Part shown: positions 22,069-25,311 of the stretch, piece by piece
How the letters are laid out: every line of letters starts with the position of its first letter
Position numbering within the stretch: the stretch's first letter is position 1
DNA from: a virus
Direction: 5' to 3' (one strand)
Virus record (IMG/VR): IMGVR_UViG_3300001525_000032
Length of the DNA stretch: 30,993 nucleotides
The notes under the pieces: model-generated
What the model saw: the letters and a program-made list of their open reading frames with translations, nothing else
Database searches by the model: none
What the model was told of the DNA's origin: nothing
Position numbers and translations under genes: made by a program

Positions 22069-23322
22069 ATGATTGGTAGAACAAACGCAGTCAACAAGCC
22101 CGGAGTCGAACTCTCCCTCGTGGTATCCGTTACCAGCGGCGCGGCGGTCACGGCGACAAAGGGCTCGAAAGTGGTAAACGGCACGGCGGCGGGCGGCTCT
22201 TGCACGCTGGCCTTGCCGGAGGCCGGTACATGGAGCGTCAAGGCCACGCTCAACGGGCAAACGTCCGACACGAAAAGCGTCTCCGTCGTCGATAGCTACG
22301 CGGTGGCGCTGACGTTCTTTTCTGCGACGATTACCGTCAACGTGGACTCCGGCGCGTCCGTCGTGCTGAAAAAGGGCGGGACGACTATCGCCACAAAGAC
22401 GAGCACCGGCTCGGCGGTTTTCACCGTCACGGAGACGGGTACATACACCGTCGAGGCCACAAAGAGCGGGCAGACCGTGAGCGGCTCCGTCAACGTCGTT
22501 TCCGGCACGACCTCCTACGCGCTGACGCTCTCTTTCGTGAGCTCCACGCTCAACAACAACGAGTGGAGCGTTATCAAGTCCGTTTCCGACGCGGGACAGG
22601 GCGCGAACTATTGGAGCATCGGCGACCGCAAGGCCGTAACGCTTAACGGCACGGTCGGAAAGCTCTCGCTCTCGAATGTCACGACCTACGCTTTCATTAT
22701 CGGGTTTAACCATAACTCGAGCGTCGAGGGGACAAACCGCATCCATTTTCAGCTTGCAAAGACCGCCCTCTCCGGCGGTACGGACGTTTGCCTCTGCGAC
22801 AGTTCCTATAACTCGACCGTCTCGGCGACCGGCTATTTCTCTATGAACAGCAGTCGAACGAACTCCGGCGGCTGGGCGAGCTCGCAAATGCGTACAAACA
22901 TTTGCGGGACGAGCCTCTCGAGCTATTCCGGGACGATTATCGCAGTCATTCCGGCGGCGCTCCGTGCCGTTCTCAAGTCCGTTACCAAGTACACGGACAA
23001 CACCGGCGGCGGAAGTACGGCGGCGAGCGCGGTCACGGCGACAACGGATTACTTTTTCCTCCTCTCGGAGTACGAGGTTTTCGGCAGCATTTCCTACGCG
23101 AATAGCAACGAGTCGAGCAAACAAGCGCAGTACGCCTATTATTCCGCCGGGAATAGCAAAATCAAGTACAAGCACGACGCGACGAGTACCGCCGCTCATT
23201 GGTGGCTCCGTTCCCCGTTTGCGAGCAACTCCAGCAATTTCGTGAGTGTGTACACCGACGGCACAGTCAACTACTACTCCGCGTACTGTTCGCTCGGCTT
23301 CGCGCCCGGCTTTTGCGTATAA
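22069..23322 (+). CDS. DGR target protein 1: receptor-binding/tail-fibre-like protein with N-terminal beta-sandwich repeats and C-terminal VR1
   Basis: It is the last gene of the tail module. The C-terminus 'HWWLRSPFASNSSNFVSVYTDGTVNYYSAYCSLGFAPGFCV' aligns to the TR. Confidence 0.85.
   Translation: MIGRTNAVNKPGVELSLVVSVTSGAAVTATKGSKVVNGTAAGGSCTLALPEAGTWSVKATLNGQTSDTKSVSVVDSYAVALTFFSATITVNVDSGASVVLKKGGTTIATKTSTGSAVFTVTETGTYTVEATKSGQTVSGSVNVVSGTTSYALTLSFVSSTLNNNEWSVIKSVSDAGQGANYWSIGDRKAVTLNGTVGKLSLSNVTTYAFIIGFNHNSSVEGTNRIHFQLAKTALSGGTDVCLCDSSYNSTVSATGYFSMNSSRTNSGGWASSQMRTNICGTSLSSYSGTIIAVIPAALRAVLKSVTKYTDNTGGGSTAASAVTATTDYFFLLSEYEVFGSISYANSNESSKQAQYAYYSAGNSKIKYKHDATSTAAHWWLRSPFASNSSNFVSVYTDGTVNYYSAYCSLGFAPGFCV
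23190..23315 (+). repeat. DGR variable repeat 1 (VR1)
   Basis: 126-nt hand alignment to TR 23833-23958. There are 15 differences, all at TR adenines. Flanking sequence diverges at non-A positions. Confidence 0.9.
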
Positions 23323-23338
23323 TTCGGAAATCGAGACT

Positions 23339-23357
23339 TGCGCCCTCAATGGGCGCA
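23339..23357 (+). promoter_or_regulatory. Hairpin downstream of VR1 (7-bp stem, loop TCAAT); candidate DGR homing cruciform
   Basis: TGCGCCC-tcaat-GGGCGCA. It starts 30 nt after 'ctcggcttcgcgcccgg', the same spacing and loop as at VR2. Confidence 0.7.
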
Positions 23358-23379
23358 TAGTCGGCGAGGAGGAAAGAAA

Positions 23380-23802
23380 ATGTCCGTACCAAAATCGAGA
23401 CGCGGCGAAAGCCCGGCGGAGTATATCAACCTCGCCCGCGAGATTTATGTTTTCACATATAACCGCGTCCGTATCTTGCCGAAAAGCTACACCTTTTATT
23501 TTTCCTTGCCGCTCTACAACGCGGCGCGAGAGGCTTATCGCATGATAAAGACGGCAAACCTCATTTACGTTGACGAGAAATCTCCCGAGGAGATACGCCG
23601 CCGGAACATCCAGCGGCGGAAAGAGCATTACGAGACGGCGCAGGGCTATTATAACTCGATGCTCGACGTGCTCGACCTCGCGTATATGACCGTCAACCAT
23701 GAGAAGATACCGCCGAACGTCCTCAAAGAGTGGGTAAAGCTCATTACGGACGAGCTCTCGCAAATCTCTAAAATCAAGCGGAGCGATAAGGCGCGAGCTT
23801 AA
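23380..23802 (+). CDS. avd: DGR accessory variability determinant (Avd-like four-helix-bundle protein)
   Basis: About 140 aa, basic and helical. 'YINLAREIYVFTYNRVRILPKSYTFYFSLPLYNAAREAYRMIKTAN' fits the Avd / 23S-IVS protein pattern. The gene sits between VR1 and the TR. Confidence 0.75.
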   Translation: MSVPKSRRGESPAEYINLAREIYVFTYNRVRILPKSYTFYFSLPLYNAAREAYRMIKTANLIYVDEKSPEEIRRRNIQRRKEHYETAQGYYNSMLDVLDLAYMTVNHEKIPPNVLKEWVKLITDELSQISKIKRSDKARA

Positions 23803-23832
23803 TCCTCCGAGTGATTAGGTTATATTCCGCAT

Positions 23833-23958
23833 CGCCGCTAATTGGTGGCTCCGTTCCCCGAATGCGAGCAACTCCAACAATTTCGTGAATGTGAACACCG
23901 ACGGCACAGTCAACAACAACAACGCGAACAATTCGCTCGGCTTCGCGCCCGGATTTTA
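23833..23958 (+). repeat. DGR template repeat (TR), non-coding
   Basis: Contains 13 AAY codon equivalents (would read 'NWWLRSPNASNSNNFVNVNTDGTVNNNNANNSLGFAPGF'). There is no start codon or RBS. It is the adenine-rich master copy of VR1 and VR2. Confidence 0.9.
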
Positions 23959-24192
23959 TATCAACATGGGGCAGACCGAATAACTCCTCACGGAGCGAAA
24001 GCAGTCCCTATATAAAAGGGGAATATAACCTCTCTGACGGCCTCGCGCCGCCGGACAAACATATACCGCGATACGGTTAGCCGGACGCTCCTTGCATGGG
24101 CGCGGAGTGCGTGTTTTCCGCGCTTTCATGGCTCGCCGTTACGCATTTTAGACAACACGCCGAGAAAGAAATGTACGAGGTATTTTTATCTT

Positions 24193-25311
24193 ATGAACAG
24201 CGCAGAACGACGCGAGGCACGGTATCAGCGTCGCAAGGCCGCGAGAATGAAAAAGAAAGCCGCCTCGCTCCGGGAACACGGAGATTTCGAGACGGTTTTC
24301 TCGTTCGAGCGGCTCTATGAGAGCTACCGCGCCTCCGTCCGTGGCGTTGGGTGGAAAGCGAGCACACAGCGATACAAAGCCGCCTCGCTCGCCAACGTCA
24401 CAAAGACACACGAGGAATTGATAGCCGGGAGATACCGCTCCAAGGGCTTTTACGAGTTCGATATTGTGGAGCGGGGAAAGCCGAGGCACATTCGGAGCGT
24501 CCATATCTCCGAGCGCGTCGTACAACGGTGCTTGTGCGATTACTGCCTTGTGCCGATGCTCTCCCGGTCGTTCATATACGACAACGGAGCGAGCTTGCGC
24601 GGCAAAGGATACGATTTCGCCGTATCCCGGGTGACGCGCTTTCTCGCGGAGCATTACAGGAAACACGGGCGGGAGGGCTACGTCCTCGTATTCGATTTTT
24701 CAAAGTATTTTGATACCGCCCGGCATGAGCCGGTATTTCGGGAGCTCGAGCGGAGCGGCATAGACGACCGCCTCGTTTCGCTCTCGAAATATTTTATTCA
24801 GAACTTCGGCGACGTGGGGCTCGGCCTCGGGAGCCAAGTCTCGCAAATCGCCGCGCTCGCCTTGCCGAACAGGATAGACCACTATATCAAGGACACGCTC
24901 GGCATGAAGCACTACGCCCGCTATATGGACGACGGGTGCATAATCAGCGAGTCAAAGGCAAAGCTCGAGCTCTGCCTCCGGGAACTCCGGCGGCTCTGCG
25001 ACGAGCTCGGTATCCGCCTCAATCCGAAAAAGACGCAGATTATCAAGCTCACGCGCGGCTTTACGTTCGTCAAGGTGCGCTTTCGCTATGGCGTAAACGG
25101 GAAAGTCGTCCGCCGGGCGACCTATAAGGGTATCCGGCACATGAGGGAGAAACTACGGATTTTCCGGCGCTGGGTGGACTCCGGCAGAATGACGGCGGCG
25201 GACGTGGAAACGTCCCTCGTCTCGTGGCGGGGACACATGAGGCGATTTCATTCGTACCACATGGCGCAGACCGTAGAGCGGCGCTATCGAGAATTATTCA
25301 AGGGAGGATAA
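24193..25311 (+). CDS. DGR reverse transcriptase
   Basis: RT motifs 'VLVFDFSKYFDT', the DGR-type motif 4 'LGSQVSQ' ([LIV]GxxxSQ), the catalytic 'YMDDG', then 'LNPKKTQI'. Confidence 0.9.
   Translation: MNSAERREARYQRRKAARMKKKAASLREHGDFETVFSFERLYESYRASVRGVGWKASTQRYKAASLANVTKTHEELIAGRYRSKGFYEFDIVERGKPRHIRSVHISERVVQRCLCDYCLVPMLSRSFIYDNGASLRGKGYDFAVSRVTRFLAEHYRKHGREGYVLVFDFSKYFDTARHEPVFRELERSGIDDRLVSLSKYFIQNFGDVGLGLGSQVSQIAALALPNRIDHYIKDTLGMKHYARYMDDGCIISESKAKLELCLRELRRLCDELGIRLNPKKTQIIKLTRGFTFVKVRFRYGVNGKVVRRATYKGIRHMREKLRIFRRWVDSGRMTAADVETSLVSWRGHMRRFHSYHMAQTVERRYRELFKGG

Follow-up and report, generated by a model that had tools for sequence, protein, structure and literature searches.

The viral genome in IMG/VR record IMGVR_UViG_3300001525_000032 (hereafter the window, meaning the whole stretch of 30,993 nucleotides that was analyzed) very probably carries a complete and recently active diversity-generating retroelement (DGR) with two target genes, a reading to which we assign a probability of roughly 93%. 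The original prediction described the order target gene with variable region (VR1), Avd-like gene, template repeat (TR), spacer and reverse transcriptase (RT), and this layout is supported by the comparison of the TR with its variable regions, the RT, the modeled fold of the Avd candidate and the spacer RNA. The prediction described VR1 only. A repeat search of the window found exactly three copies of the repeat, namely TR, VR1 and a second variable region (VR2), and the element has two targets. The coordinates of all features are collected in Table 1.

In an ungapped computational alignment, the TR and VR1 are identical at 111 of 126 positions, and the 15 mismatches all fall on TR adenines (33 of the 126 bases; hypergeometric P = 1.0e-10) rather than being spread over the four TR bases. 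The homology is flanked on both sides by mismatches at all four bases. Read in the frame of VR1, the TR translates to AANWWLRSPNASNSNNFVNVNTDGTVNNNNANNSLGFAPGFY and contains 13 AAY (Asn) codons, and 30 of the 31 adenines in its diversified range occupy codon position 1 or 2. These results bear out what had been proposed from a hand alignment, namely that the TR is a copy of the last ~42 codons of the target gene, that all 15 differences are located on TR adenines, that the TR holds thirteen AAY codons and that the homology ends abruptly at non-A mismatches. The reading of all 15 differences as a signature of mutagenic retrohoming needs to be amended, since it holds for the adenine pattern but not for two of the positions. 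Position 23953 is A in the TR and C in every VR, and position 23958 is A in the TR and G in every VR1 (100% of 43 relatives). Because these bases differ in all relatives, they represent fixed TR-specific boundary differences rather than mutagenesis, and the diversified range is therefore TR 23840-23931. By analogy, the two fixed bases are comparable to the difference between IMH* and IMH (initiation of mutagenic homing) in known systems, and integration must resolve within the A-free segment 23932-23952. This 21-nt segment, TTCGCTCGGCTTCGCGCCCGG, has exactly three copies in the window, one each in the TR, VR1 and VR2, as does the 5' block TGGTGGCTCCGTTCCCCG. The identical GC-rich segment is followed by fixed TR-specific bases, and a hairpin is found downstream of both VRs; the function of this IMH-type arrangement is predicted.

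The second target shows the same pattern. VR2 and TR 23840-23956 differ at 18 positions, all of which are TR adenines (P = 7e-13), and over 113-120 nt both VRs in the window have the TR base wherever that base is not A. Like VR1, which ends 7 nt before the stop codon of ORF (open reading frame) 22069-23322, VR2 is located at the 3' end of a coding gene and ends 9 nt before the stop codon of ORF 3653-4303, and the non-coding TR lies close to the RT gene. The distance from VR2 to the TR downstream of it is 19.6 kb, or 11.3 kb if measured through the circular junction. Its gene, far from the tail module, starts one base past the stop codon of the Hydrolase_2 gene 2930-3652, and 53 of 55 related loci, among them loci that are only 64-66% identical, retain the adjacency of the hydrolase and the small target gene. 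There is strong evidence that this remote target has stayed in register with the TR, and this is one of the incremental points of the element.

The variable regions were also compared across related genomes, which served in place of sequencing reads for the examination of polymorphism. Relatives were recovered with protein-seeded scans and with scans for the TR pattern after masking of all its adenines, and their TRs were extracted by alignment. In 104 TR/VR pairs with RTs that are 38-99% identical, 1739 mismatches were located at TR adenines and 82 elsewhere, with adenine accounting for 25% of the TR bases. The VR1s of the 43 close relatives (RT at least 85% identical) are all distinct, and 780 of their 805 differences from the cognate TR are at adenines, leaving 25 at other bases. 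These 43 genomes contain 12 TR variants, and VR1 carries the non-A base of its own genome's TR in 144 of 147 cases. When the related TRs were compared to the TR in the window, the differences were distributed the other way, with 66 at non-A positions and 16 at window adenines, and the non-A changes were found to be copied into the VRs. Likewise, VR2 is distinct in 46 of 46 loci; on 12 contigs with a known cognate TR, all 202 differences from it lie at adenines, and 55 of 55 non-A TR variants are tracked. Furthermore, genomes that are 98-99% identical in the flanks carry different VRs. The original prediction would have been challenged by a lack of VR polymorphism, but the polymorphism among relatives is extreme and restricted to A-templated positions. 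In this population proxy, the VRs change while the TR remains constant, and as far as comparisons of genomes can tell, the pattern is the one expected of a continuing one-way transfer from TR to VR with adenine mutagenesis at both targets. A pair of entries, L013/L172, was left out of the cognate-TR test; this 6.2-kb contig (IMG/VR 3300029613_000103) has the small-target gene with VR2 at the TR site, directly upstream of the spacer and the RT gene. It is probably an assembly chimera generated via the TR/VR2 repeat, or else a real recombinant.

The RT gene encodes both the LGSQVSQ motif and the catalytic YMDD noted in the original prediction. The best solved relative of the protein is the Bordetella DGR RT (PDB 8ub7, E 1.6e-22, residues 32-365), whereas group II intron and retron-type RTs in the PDB give E-values of 4e-8 or weaker. 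The protein also matches Pfam RVT_1 and PHROG 1423 (E 3e-80), and among annotated phage RTs the closest share 46-50% identity with it (46% for that of Roseburia phage Shimadzu). We considered the possibility that the RT belongs to another class, such as group II introns, retrons or abortive infection (Abi) and DRT defense systems, and that the TR and VRs are ordinary paralogous gene fragments. The best-scoring NCBIfam model is indeed the group II intron RT/maturase TIGR04416 and weaker scores were obtained for Drt3a and retron models, and the record of one annotated phage relative labels the RT "retron-type". However, these scores are far below the cut-offs (72.7 bits vs. 300 for TIGR04416, 36 vs. 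200 for Drt3a and 32 vs. 235 for retron St85, with Drt2/4/5 below 25), and of group II intron domains, the retron msr/msd and RT-2, only RT-2 was matched by Rfam in the window. Nor can paralogy explain mismatches that are confined to one base of one copy, or the tracking of TR changes by the VRs, and the ungapped comparisons exclude an alignment artefact. We consider this alternative effectively refuted, with next to no probability left to it. With [LIV]GxxxSQ and YxDD both present, 8ub7 the closest relative and no NCBIfam cut-off reached, the protein is classed, from motifs and best matches, as a DGR RT rather than with the group II intron, retron or Abi RTs.

The spacer that separates the TR from the RT gene matches the full length of the Rfam RT-2 RNA model (RF03077), and RT-2 was found in 17 of 17 relatives, always between the TR and a DGR RT. 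A search for complementarity between the 5' flank of the TR and the spacer yielded a 12-bp duplex (H1), which is found again in relatives down to ~38% RT identity with changes in both arms. When RNAalifold was applied to an unbiased MAFFT alignment of 33 relatives, it predicted H1 as well as a second helix (H2), formed by the TR tail and the spacer. Compensatory changes were observed in 8 of 10 pairs in H1 and in 5 of 7 pairs in H2, together 13 of 17. Across the two helices, 94.8% of the cells in the alignment are paired, as compared to 77.6% in shuffles and 39-59% when the partners were slid, and double-sided changes number 105, as compared to 26 in shuffles. Folding of the single sequence 23803-24192 gave a stability no greater than that of shuffles (z = -1.2), and it is covariation rather than energy that supports the helices.

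The layout of these helices matches that of the Bordetella ribonucleoprotein (Handa et al., bioRxiv 10.1101/2023.10.23.563531). There, the TR and the spacer (Sp) form a template:primer duplex (primer Sp A56); after G57 and C58 comes the avd:Sp "cPRT Stop" duplex, then a short stem-loop and finally the A-minor adenosines. Conservation of the cPRT-stop duplex in 207 DGRs, including those of Bacillota, was proposed in the same study from single-sequence folds. In the window, the two helices are separated by the invariant G24018-G24019, and the segment 24033-24059 is, by analogy, the counterpart of the cPRT-stop stem-loop and its A-minor adenosines. The same analogy points to A24017 as the predicted priming nucleotide and suggests that cDNA synthesis should stop just before H1. 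The homology between the TR and VR1 starts at 23833, four nucleotides past the H1 arm, which is consistent with such a stop. The stretches that are unpaired in the Rfam RT-2 consensus correspond to the spacer strands of H2 and H1, the partners of which lie outside the Rfam model. Among the RT-associated motifs RT-1 to RT-19 of Weinberg et al. (2017), RT-10 was the only one connected to a DGR, namely the BPP-1 element (PMC5737381). The spacer is a full-length, high-scoring member of RT-2, which has been described only as an RT-associated candidate small RNA (PMC5737381), whereas here it is placed between a TR and a DGR RT.

After each VR come a stop codon, AATTCGGAA and a GC-rich hairpin, the latter 24-26 nt downstream of the VR. 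A hairpin located 5-28 nt (mostly 14-28 nt) after the VR is present in approximately 45 of 50 distinct relatives, with GC-rich covarying stems and the loop TCAAT in close relatives or CTTGT, CTGTGT or TTTAT in distant ones. In BPP-1, a GC-rich hairpin after the VR is required for homing and its 4-nt GRNA loop is sequence-dependent (Guo et al.; PMC3240598). One may argue that the hairpins are mere transcription terminators of the target genes with no role in retrohoming, since they are located at the gene ends, shortly past the stop codons, and since DGR target hairpins have been noted to resemble terminators (PMC3240598). However, neither hairpin is followed by a T-run or was called terminator-like in the terminator scan. 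Moreover, the two hairpins have an identical 5-nt loop on unrelated stems, and among relatives the loop is kept while the stems covary. Because of the shared loop and the unrelated, covarying stems, a recognized structure provides a better fit than a generic terminator, and we find the terminator explanation improbable. The hairpins may thus serve as recognition structures in retrohoming.

An Avd-like four-helix-bundle gene between the VR and the TR had also been predicted. An AlphaFold2 (AF2) model of the protein encoded by ORF 23380-23802, built with 23 homologs, has helices at residues 12-30, 35-61, 70-104 and 112-139 (pTM 0.74). The top Foldseek match was 2gsc of the 23S-rRNA intervening-protein (IVP) family (TM 0.85 normalized to the target), followed by the Bordetella Avd chains 8ub7/8ube/4dwl with probabilities of 0.9-1.0. 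The protein has a weak match to PHROG "Avd protein of DGR" (E 1e-3), and an exhaustive profile search gave 246 relatives; 3 of the 56 that were aligned reach Pfam bAvd or 23S_rRNA_IVP (best E 5e-6). On the basis of the modeled four-helix fold, the position and these weak sequence bridges, we accept the ORF as a probable divergent Avd of the Avd/IVP fold. PDB searches with its sequence and with two profiles derived from it returned no Avd, the only matches being chance-level ones to ribosomal protein uS15.

Both targets contain a DUF6273 domain, a domain reported or modeled as a C-type-lectin fold (PMC10743442). Target 1 matches Pfam DUF6273 over residues 259-417 (E 1.3e-14) and PHROG 37900 (E 4e-100), and the paralogy of the two targets extends far outside the repeat (33% identity over 159 residues, E 2e-19). 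When both targets were searched against the PDB, as profiles and as sequences, the matches were at chance level only. The start of target 2 is probably at 3668, because its homologs are 211 aa long. To judge from gene order only, target 1 may be a tail-fiber-like receptor-binding tip protein. Both targets may bind ligands. A total of 824 homologs were found for the small target, and single clusters at 90% identity have up to 6125 distinct member sequences. Its mean entropy is 0.21 bits for residues 1-170 as compared to 0.99 bits for residues 171-211; all twelve AAY-templated residues at 178-201 exceed 1.5 bits and the thirteenth, residue 171, has 0.73 bits. The protein is otherwise nearly invariant, with the variability concentrated at the AAY-templated residues. 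Most TR adenines differ in 0.3-0.9 of the 43 VR1s, but the two adenines of the ACA (Thr) codon at TR 23906-23908 differ in only 0.02 and 0.00 of them. Because these adenines almost never differ in the VRs, strong purifying selection probably acts on the Thr residue.

Several points weigh against the interpretation of the element as complete and recently active. Activity in this genome is judged from the perfect identity at non-A positions and from the diversity among relatives. The Avd candidate itself has no significant Pfam, NCBIfam or PDB sequence match, and Foldseek gave it weak E-values (0.05-1), which is common with short helical bundles. For the small target, the AF2 model obtained from a shallow alignment, in which all sequences are at least 84% identical, is poor (pLDDT 44.5). 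The hairpin loops are 5-6 nt long and pyrimidine-rich, unlike the critical 4-nt GRNA loop in BPP-1. Finally, targets can fall out of use, as suggested by the drift of VR1 in L005 (~2762-2887, reverse) and L007 (~4054-4182, reverse), which are ~91-93% identical to the window. Both have several non-A differences between VR1 and their own TR and hence seem to be out of register with it; in L007, three nucleotides are additionally inserted in VR1, and in L005 the A-free IMH-like segment is altered. Such decay within the lineage, and the fact that the evidence for activity comes from across genomes rather than from within-sample reads, are what one would cite for an element that has the anatomy of a DGR but is now inactive in this genome, with historical differences and both VRs frozen. 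Yet, the VRs in the window equal the TR at every non-A position, the ORFs of the RT, avd and both targets are intact along with the YMDD motif and the RNA helices, and the VRs differ between genomes with nearly identical flanks. We therefore consider inactivity to be very unlikely.

In the active two-target retroelement that we favor, the RNA comprising the 3' flank of avd, the TR and the RT-2-type spacer would fold such that two adjacent helices bracket the TR, with H2 joining the 3' tail of the TR and H1 its 5' flank to the spacer. By analogy with the Bordetella bRT-Avd-RNA complex, the RT and the Avd-like protein would self-prime from A24017 in the spacer and copy the TR toward its 5' end, with misincorporation opposite adenines and a stop at H1. 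The cDNA would then replace the homologous VR at either of the two targets, each of which would be marked by the common 21-nt A-free GC-rich segment and the downstream GC-rich hairpin with the TCAAT loop. As a result, as many as 13 Asn-coded (AAY) positions would vary in the C-terminal DUF6273 domains of two proteins, a large one from the tail module and a small one encoded beside the cell-wall hydrolase.

The genome is that of a temperate gut phage of Oscillospiraceae-type Clostridia. Since bases 1-75 are an exact copy of bases 30919-30993, giving a 75-nt terminal direct repeat, the window corresponds to a circularly closed contig of 30,918 bp and a complete phage genome. No canonical integrase was seen among the scanned ORFs, yet relatives sit inside long bacterial contigs, which were assigned to Oscillospiraceae, Acutalibacteraceae, Candidatus Gallimonas and other gut Clostridia. 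The hosts here appear to be Oscillospiraceae/Acutalibacteraceae other than Faecalibacterium. A megablast search of the DGR cassette against the annotated phage collection gave no match, with relatives found only at the protein level.

Table 1. Features of the retroelement and its genomic surroundings in the window.
Feature	Position	Strand	Description
Target gene 1	22069-23322	+	417 aa; N-terminal repeated beta-rich region and C-terminal DUF6273; directly after the tail genes
VR1	23190-23315	+	Last 42 codons of target 1; diversified core 23197-23288; A-free GC-rich IMH-like segment 23289-23309
VR1 hairpin	23339-23357	+	TGCGCCC [TCAAT] GGGCGCA; 7 bp; 24 nt past VR1
Avd-like gene	23380-23802	+	140 aa; between VR1 and TR; putative divergent four-helix protein
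H1 5' arm	23817-23828	+	AGGTTATATTCC; pairs with 24020-24031; putative analog of the avd strand of the Bordetella cPRT-stop duplex
TR	23833-23958	+	Non-coding; 33 A, 40 C, 28 G, 25 T; in the avd-RT intergenic region, without start codon
H2 template strand	23954-23961	+	TTTTATAT; TR tail, absent from both VRs; putative analog of the Bordetella TR:Sp template:primer duplex
Spacer, RT-2 RNA (RF03077)	23966-24203	+	140.1 bits vs. gathering score 40; model positions 1-222 of 222
H2 primer strand	24010-24017	+	ATATAAAA; followed by the invariant GG 24018-24019
H1 3' arm	24020-24031	+	GGAATATAACCT; spacer strand
Stem-loop and adenosines	24033-24059	+	TCTGACGGC/GCCGCCGGA, stem-loop 24033-24055, then conserved adenosines of CAAAC; from the sequence, the Rfam RT-2 consensus stem and the conserved AAA in the alignment
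DGR RT	24193-25311	+	372 aa; LGSQVSQ at nt 24826-24846; YMDD at nt 24922-24933
Target gene 2	3653-4303	+	Small DUF6273 protein; 216-aa ORF; Pfam DUF6273 E 4.2e-11
VR2	4178-4294	+	3' end of ORF 3653-4303; aligns with TR 23840-23956
VR2 hairpin	4320-4344	+	GCTCCCCGGC [TCAAT] GCCGGGGAGC; 10 bp; loop as in the VR1 hairpin, stem different
PAPS-reductase-like protein	1024-1929
Hydrolase_2 (SleB-like) cell-wall hydrolase	2930-3652		Pfam; abuts the small target gene
Rolling-circle-type replication initiator	5051-5815		PHROG 3584
Large terminase	7639-9294		Portal and protease also encoded
Major head protein	11195-12379
Tape measure	14944-17706
Prophage_tail protein	19158-21077		Pfam/PHROG
Tail-fiber-like protein	21092-22066		Followed by target 1, avd, TR and RT
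Endolysin	27503-28264		Separate from the Hydrolase_2 gene
PHROG 4646 protein	29893-30942		Annotated "transposase"

Some additional features were observed in the tail genes and elsewhere. The tail-fiber-like gene contains three tandem 123-nt repeats at 21415-21795, which are 82-84% identical and encode the repeated unit SPTAGNFAGLDANGN.TDSGKKA.DFA...HTHTGKADKV. In the Prophage_tail gene, four 24-nt repeats (20429-20548 and downstream) encode GGGQTTSS; next comes a run rich in histidine, SAHTHEVYDHTHRVSAHTHTVKDHTHTVKDHTH, which resembles a metal-binding or spacer segment. A simple scan for promoters and terminators on the plus strand gave nothing informative, and an inverted repeat, 24823-24861 / 26314-26352 (74% complementary), was judged to be due to chance. 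In a distant relative from a metagenome-assembled genome of the Clostridia (L106), a tmRNA gene is located at 5291-5676 on the minus strand, 2.3 kb downstream of the DGR RT, and may mark a prophage at ssrA. Another relative (L115) has a match to a type II hammerhead ribozyme at 7035-7099 on the plus strand (42.5 bits vs. a gathering score of 37).

The element resembles the Bordetella BPP-1 DGR (mtd VR - avd - TR - Sp - brt) in the order of target gene with VR, avd, TR, spacer and RT, and in the adenine-specific differences between TR and VR. In both systems, the 3' segment shared by TR and VR is GC-rich and A-free, with TR-specific bases after it, and a GC-rich hairpin is located behind the VR. 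The spacer forms duplexes with the 3' end and the upstream region of the TR that are two nucleotides apart and followed by a stem-loop and adenosines. Furthermore, bRT (cryo-EM entries 8ub7 and related) is the closest solved relative of the RT. However, the RT alignment is divergent (E 1.6e-22) and a relationship of the Avd here is undetectable by sequence in the PDB. The spacer is RT-2 here and RT-10 in BPP-1, and the hairpin has the 5-nt loop TCAAT in place of the 4-nt GRNA. Moreover, the targets are DUF6273 proteins instead of Mtd, and there are two of them, one of which is remote.

Closer parallels in target organization are found in gut phages. The Faecalibacterium prophages Lelie and CP11 (PMC11792537) are likewise phages of gut Clostridia whose single DGR comes with two variable regions. 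Their targets, one large and one small, are DUF6273 proteins with a C-terminal VR, and the VRs vary across cognate genomes. These are nevertheless other phages, the annotated Faecalibacterium phage RTs are only ~31-34% identical to the RT in the window, the hosts appear to be different, and RNA elements were outside the analysis in that paper. In the gut phages nd4 and nd12 (PMC10743442), one TR also serves two targets, a tentaclin and a DUF6273 protein; the latter (tgt2) is 234-294 aa long, consists of DUF6273 only, has a modeled C-type-lectin fold and carries the VR at the 3' end. The RTs in these phages (H5, H14) are 32-35% identical to the one studied here, and the element in the window differs from theirs in that it has no tentaclin layout (N-terminal C-lec, 5' VR), both VRs are at the 3' end and the second target is far outside the cassette. 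Because large and small DUF6273 targets on one TR have been published (PMC11792537), as have second targets made up of DUF6273 only (PMC10743442), the DGR is not a new kind of system. Its incremental points, besides the remote target, are the assignment of RT-2 to a DGR spacer with covariation-supported helices beyond the Rfam model, and a non-GRNA loop common to both targets.

Among the known drivers of targeted protein hypervariation in gut phages, DGRs are the main one. The element described here is textbook-complete, with an RT, an Avd, a TR, a spacer RNA and two targets with matching recognition signals, and its activity is documented by hundreds of natural relatives. In practice, it is of value as a well-resolved reference for a clade of gut-phage DGRs that is very common. 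The analysis links the orphan Rfam motif RT-2 to a DGR spacer and indicates that the Bordetella RNA architecture has been kept in a clade with an RT that is only distantly related to bRT. A single TR that serves an adjacent and a remote target should also be useful for studies of target choice and for the engineering of retargetable DGRs. Two broader hypotheses, both modestly new, are put forward as speculative and rather doubtful. One is that RT-2 is the functional spacer RNA of a large DGR clade in phages of the Clostridia, with its unpaired tracts as the primer and cPRT-stop strands, and the other is that the small remote target is perhaps not a receptor-binding protein of the virion. The small DUF6273 protein could instead be a DGR-diversified cell-wall- or surface-binding partner of the adjacent hydrolase, or have some other non-structural function. 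If RT-2 is indeed such a spacer, the priming nucleotide and the limits of the cDNA would be predictable from sequence for thousands of gut-phage DGRs.

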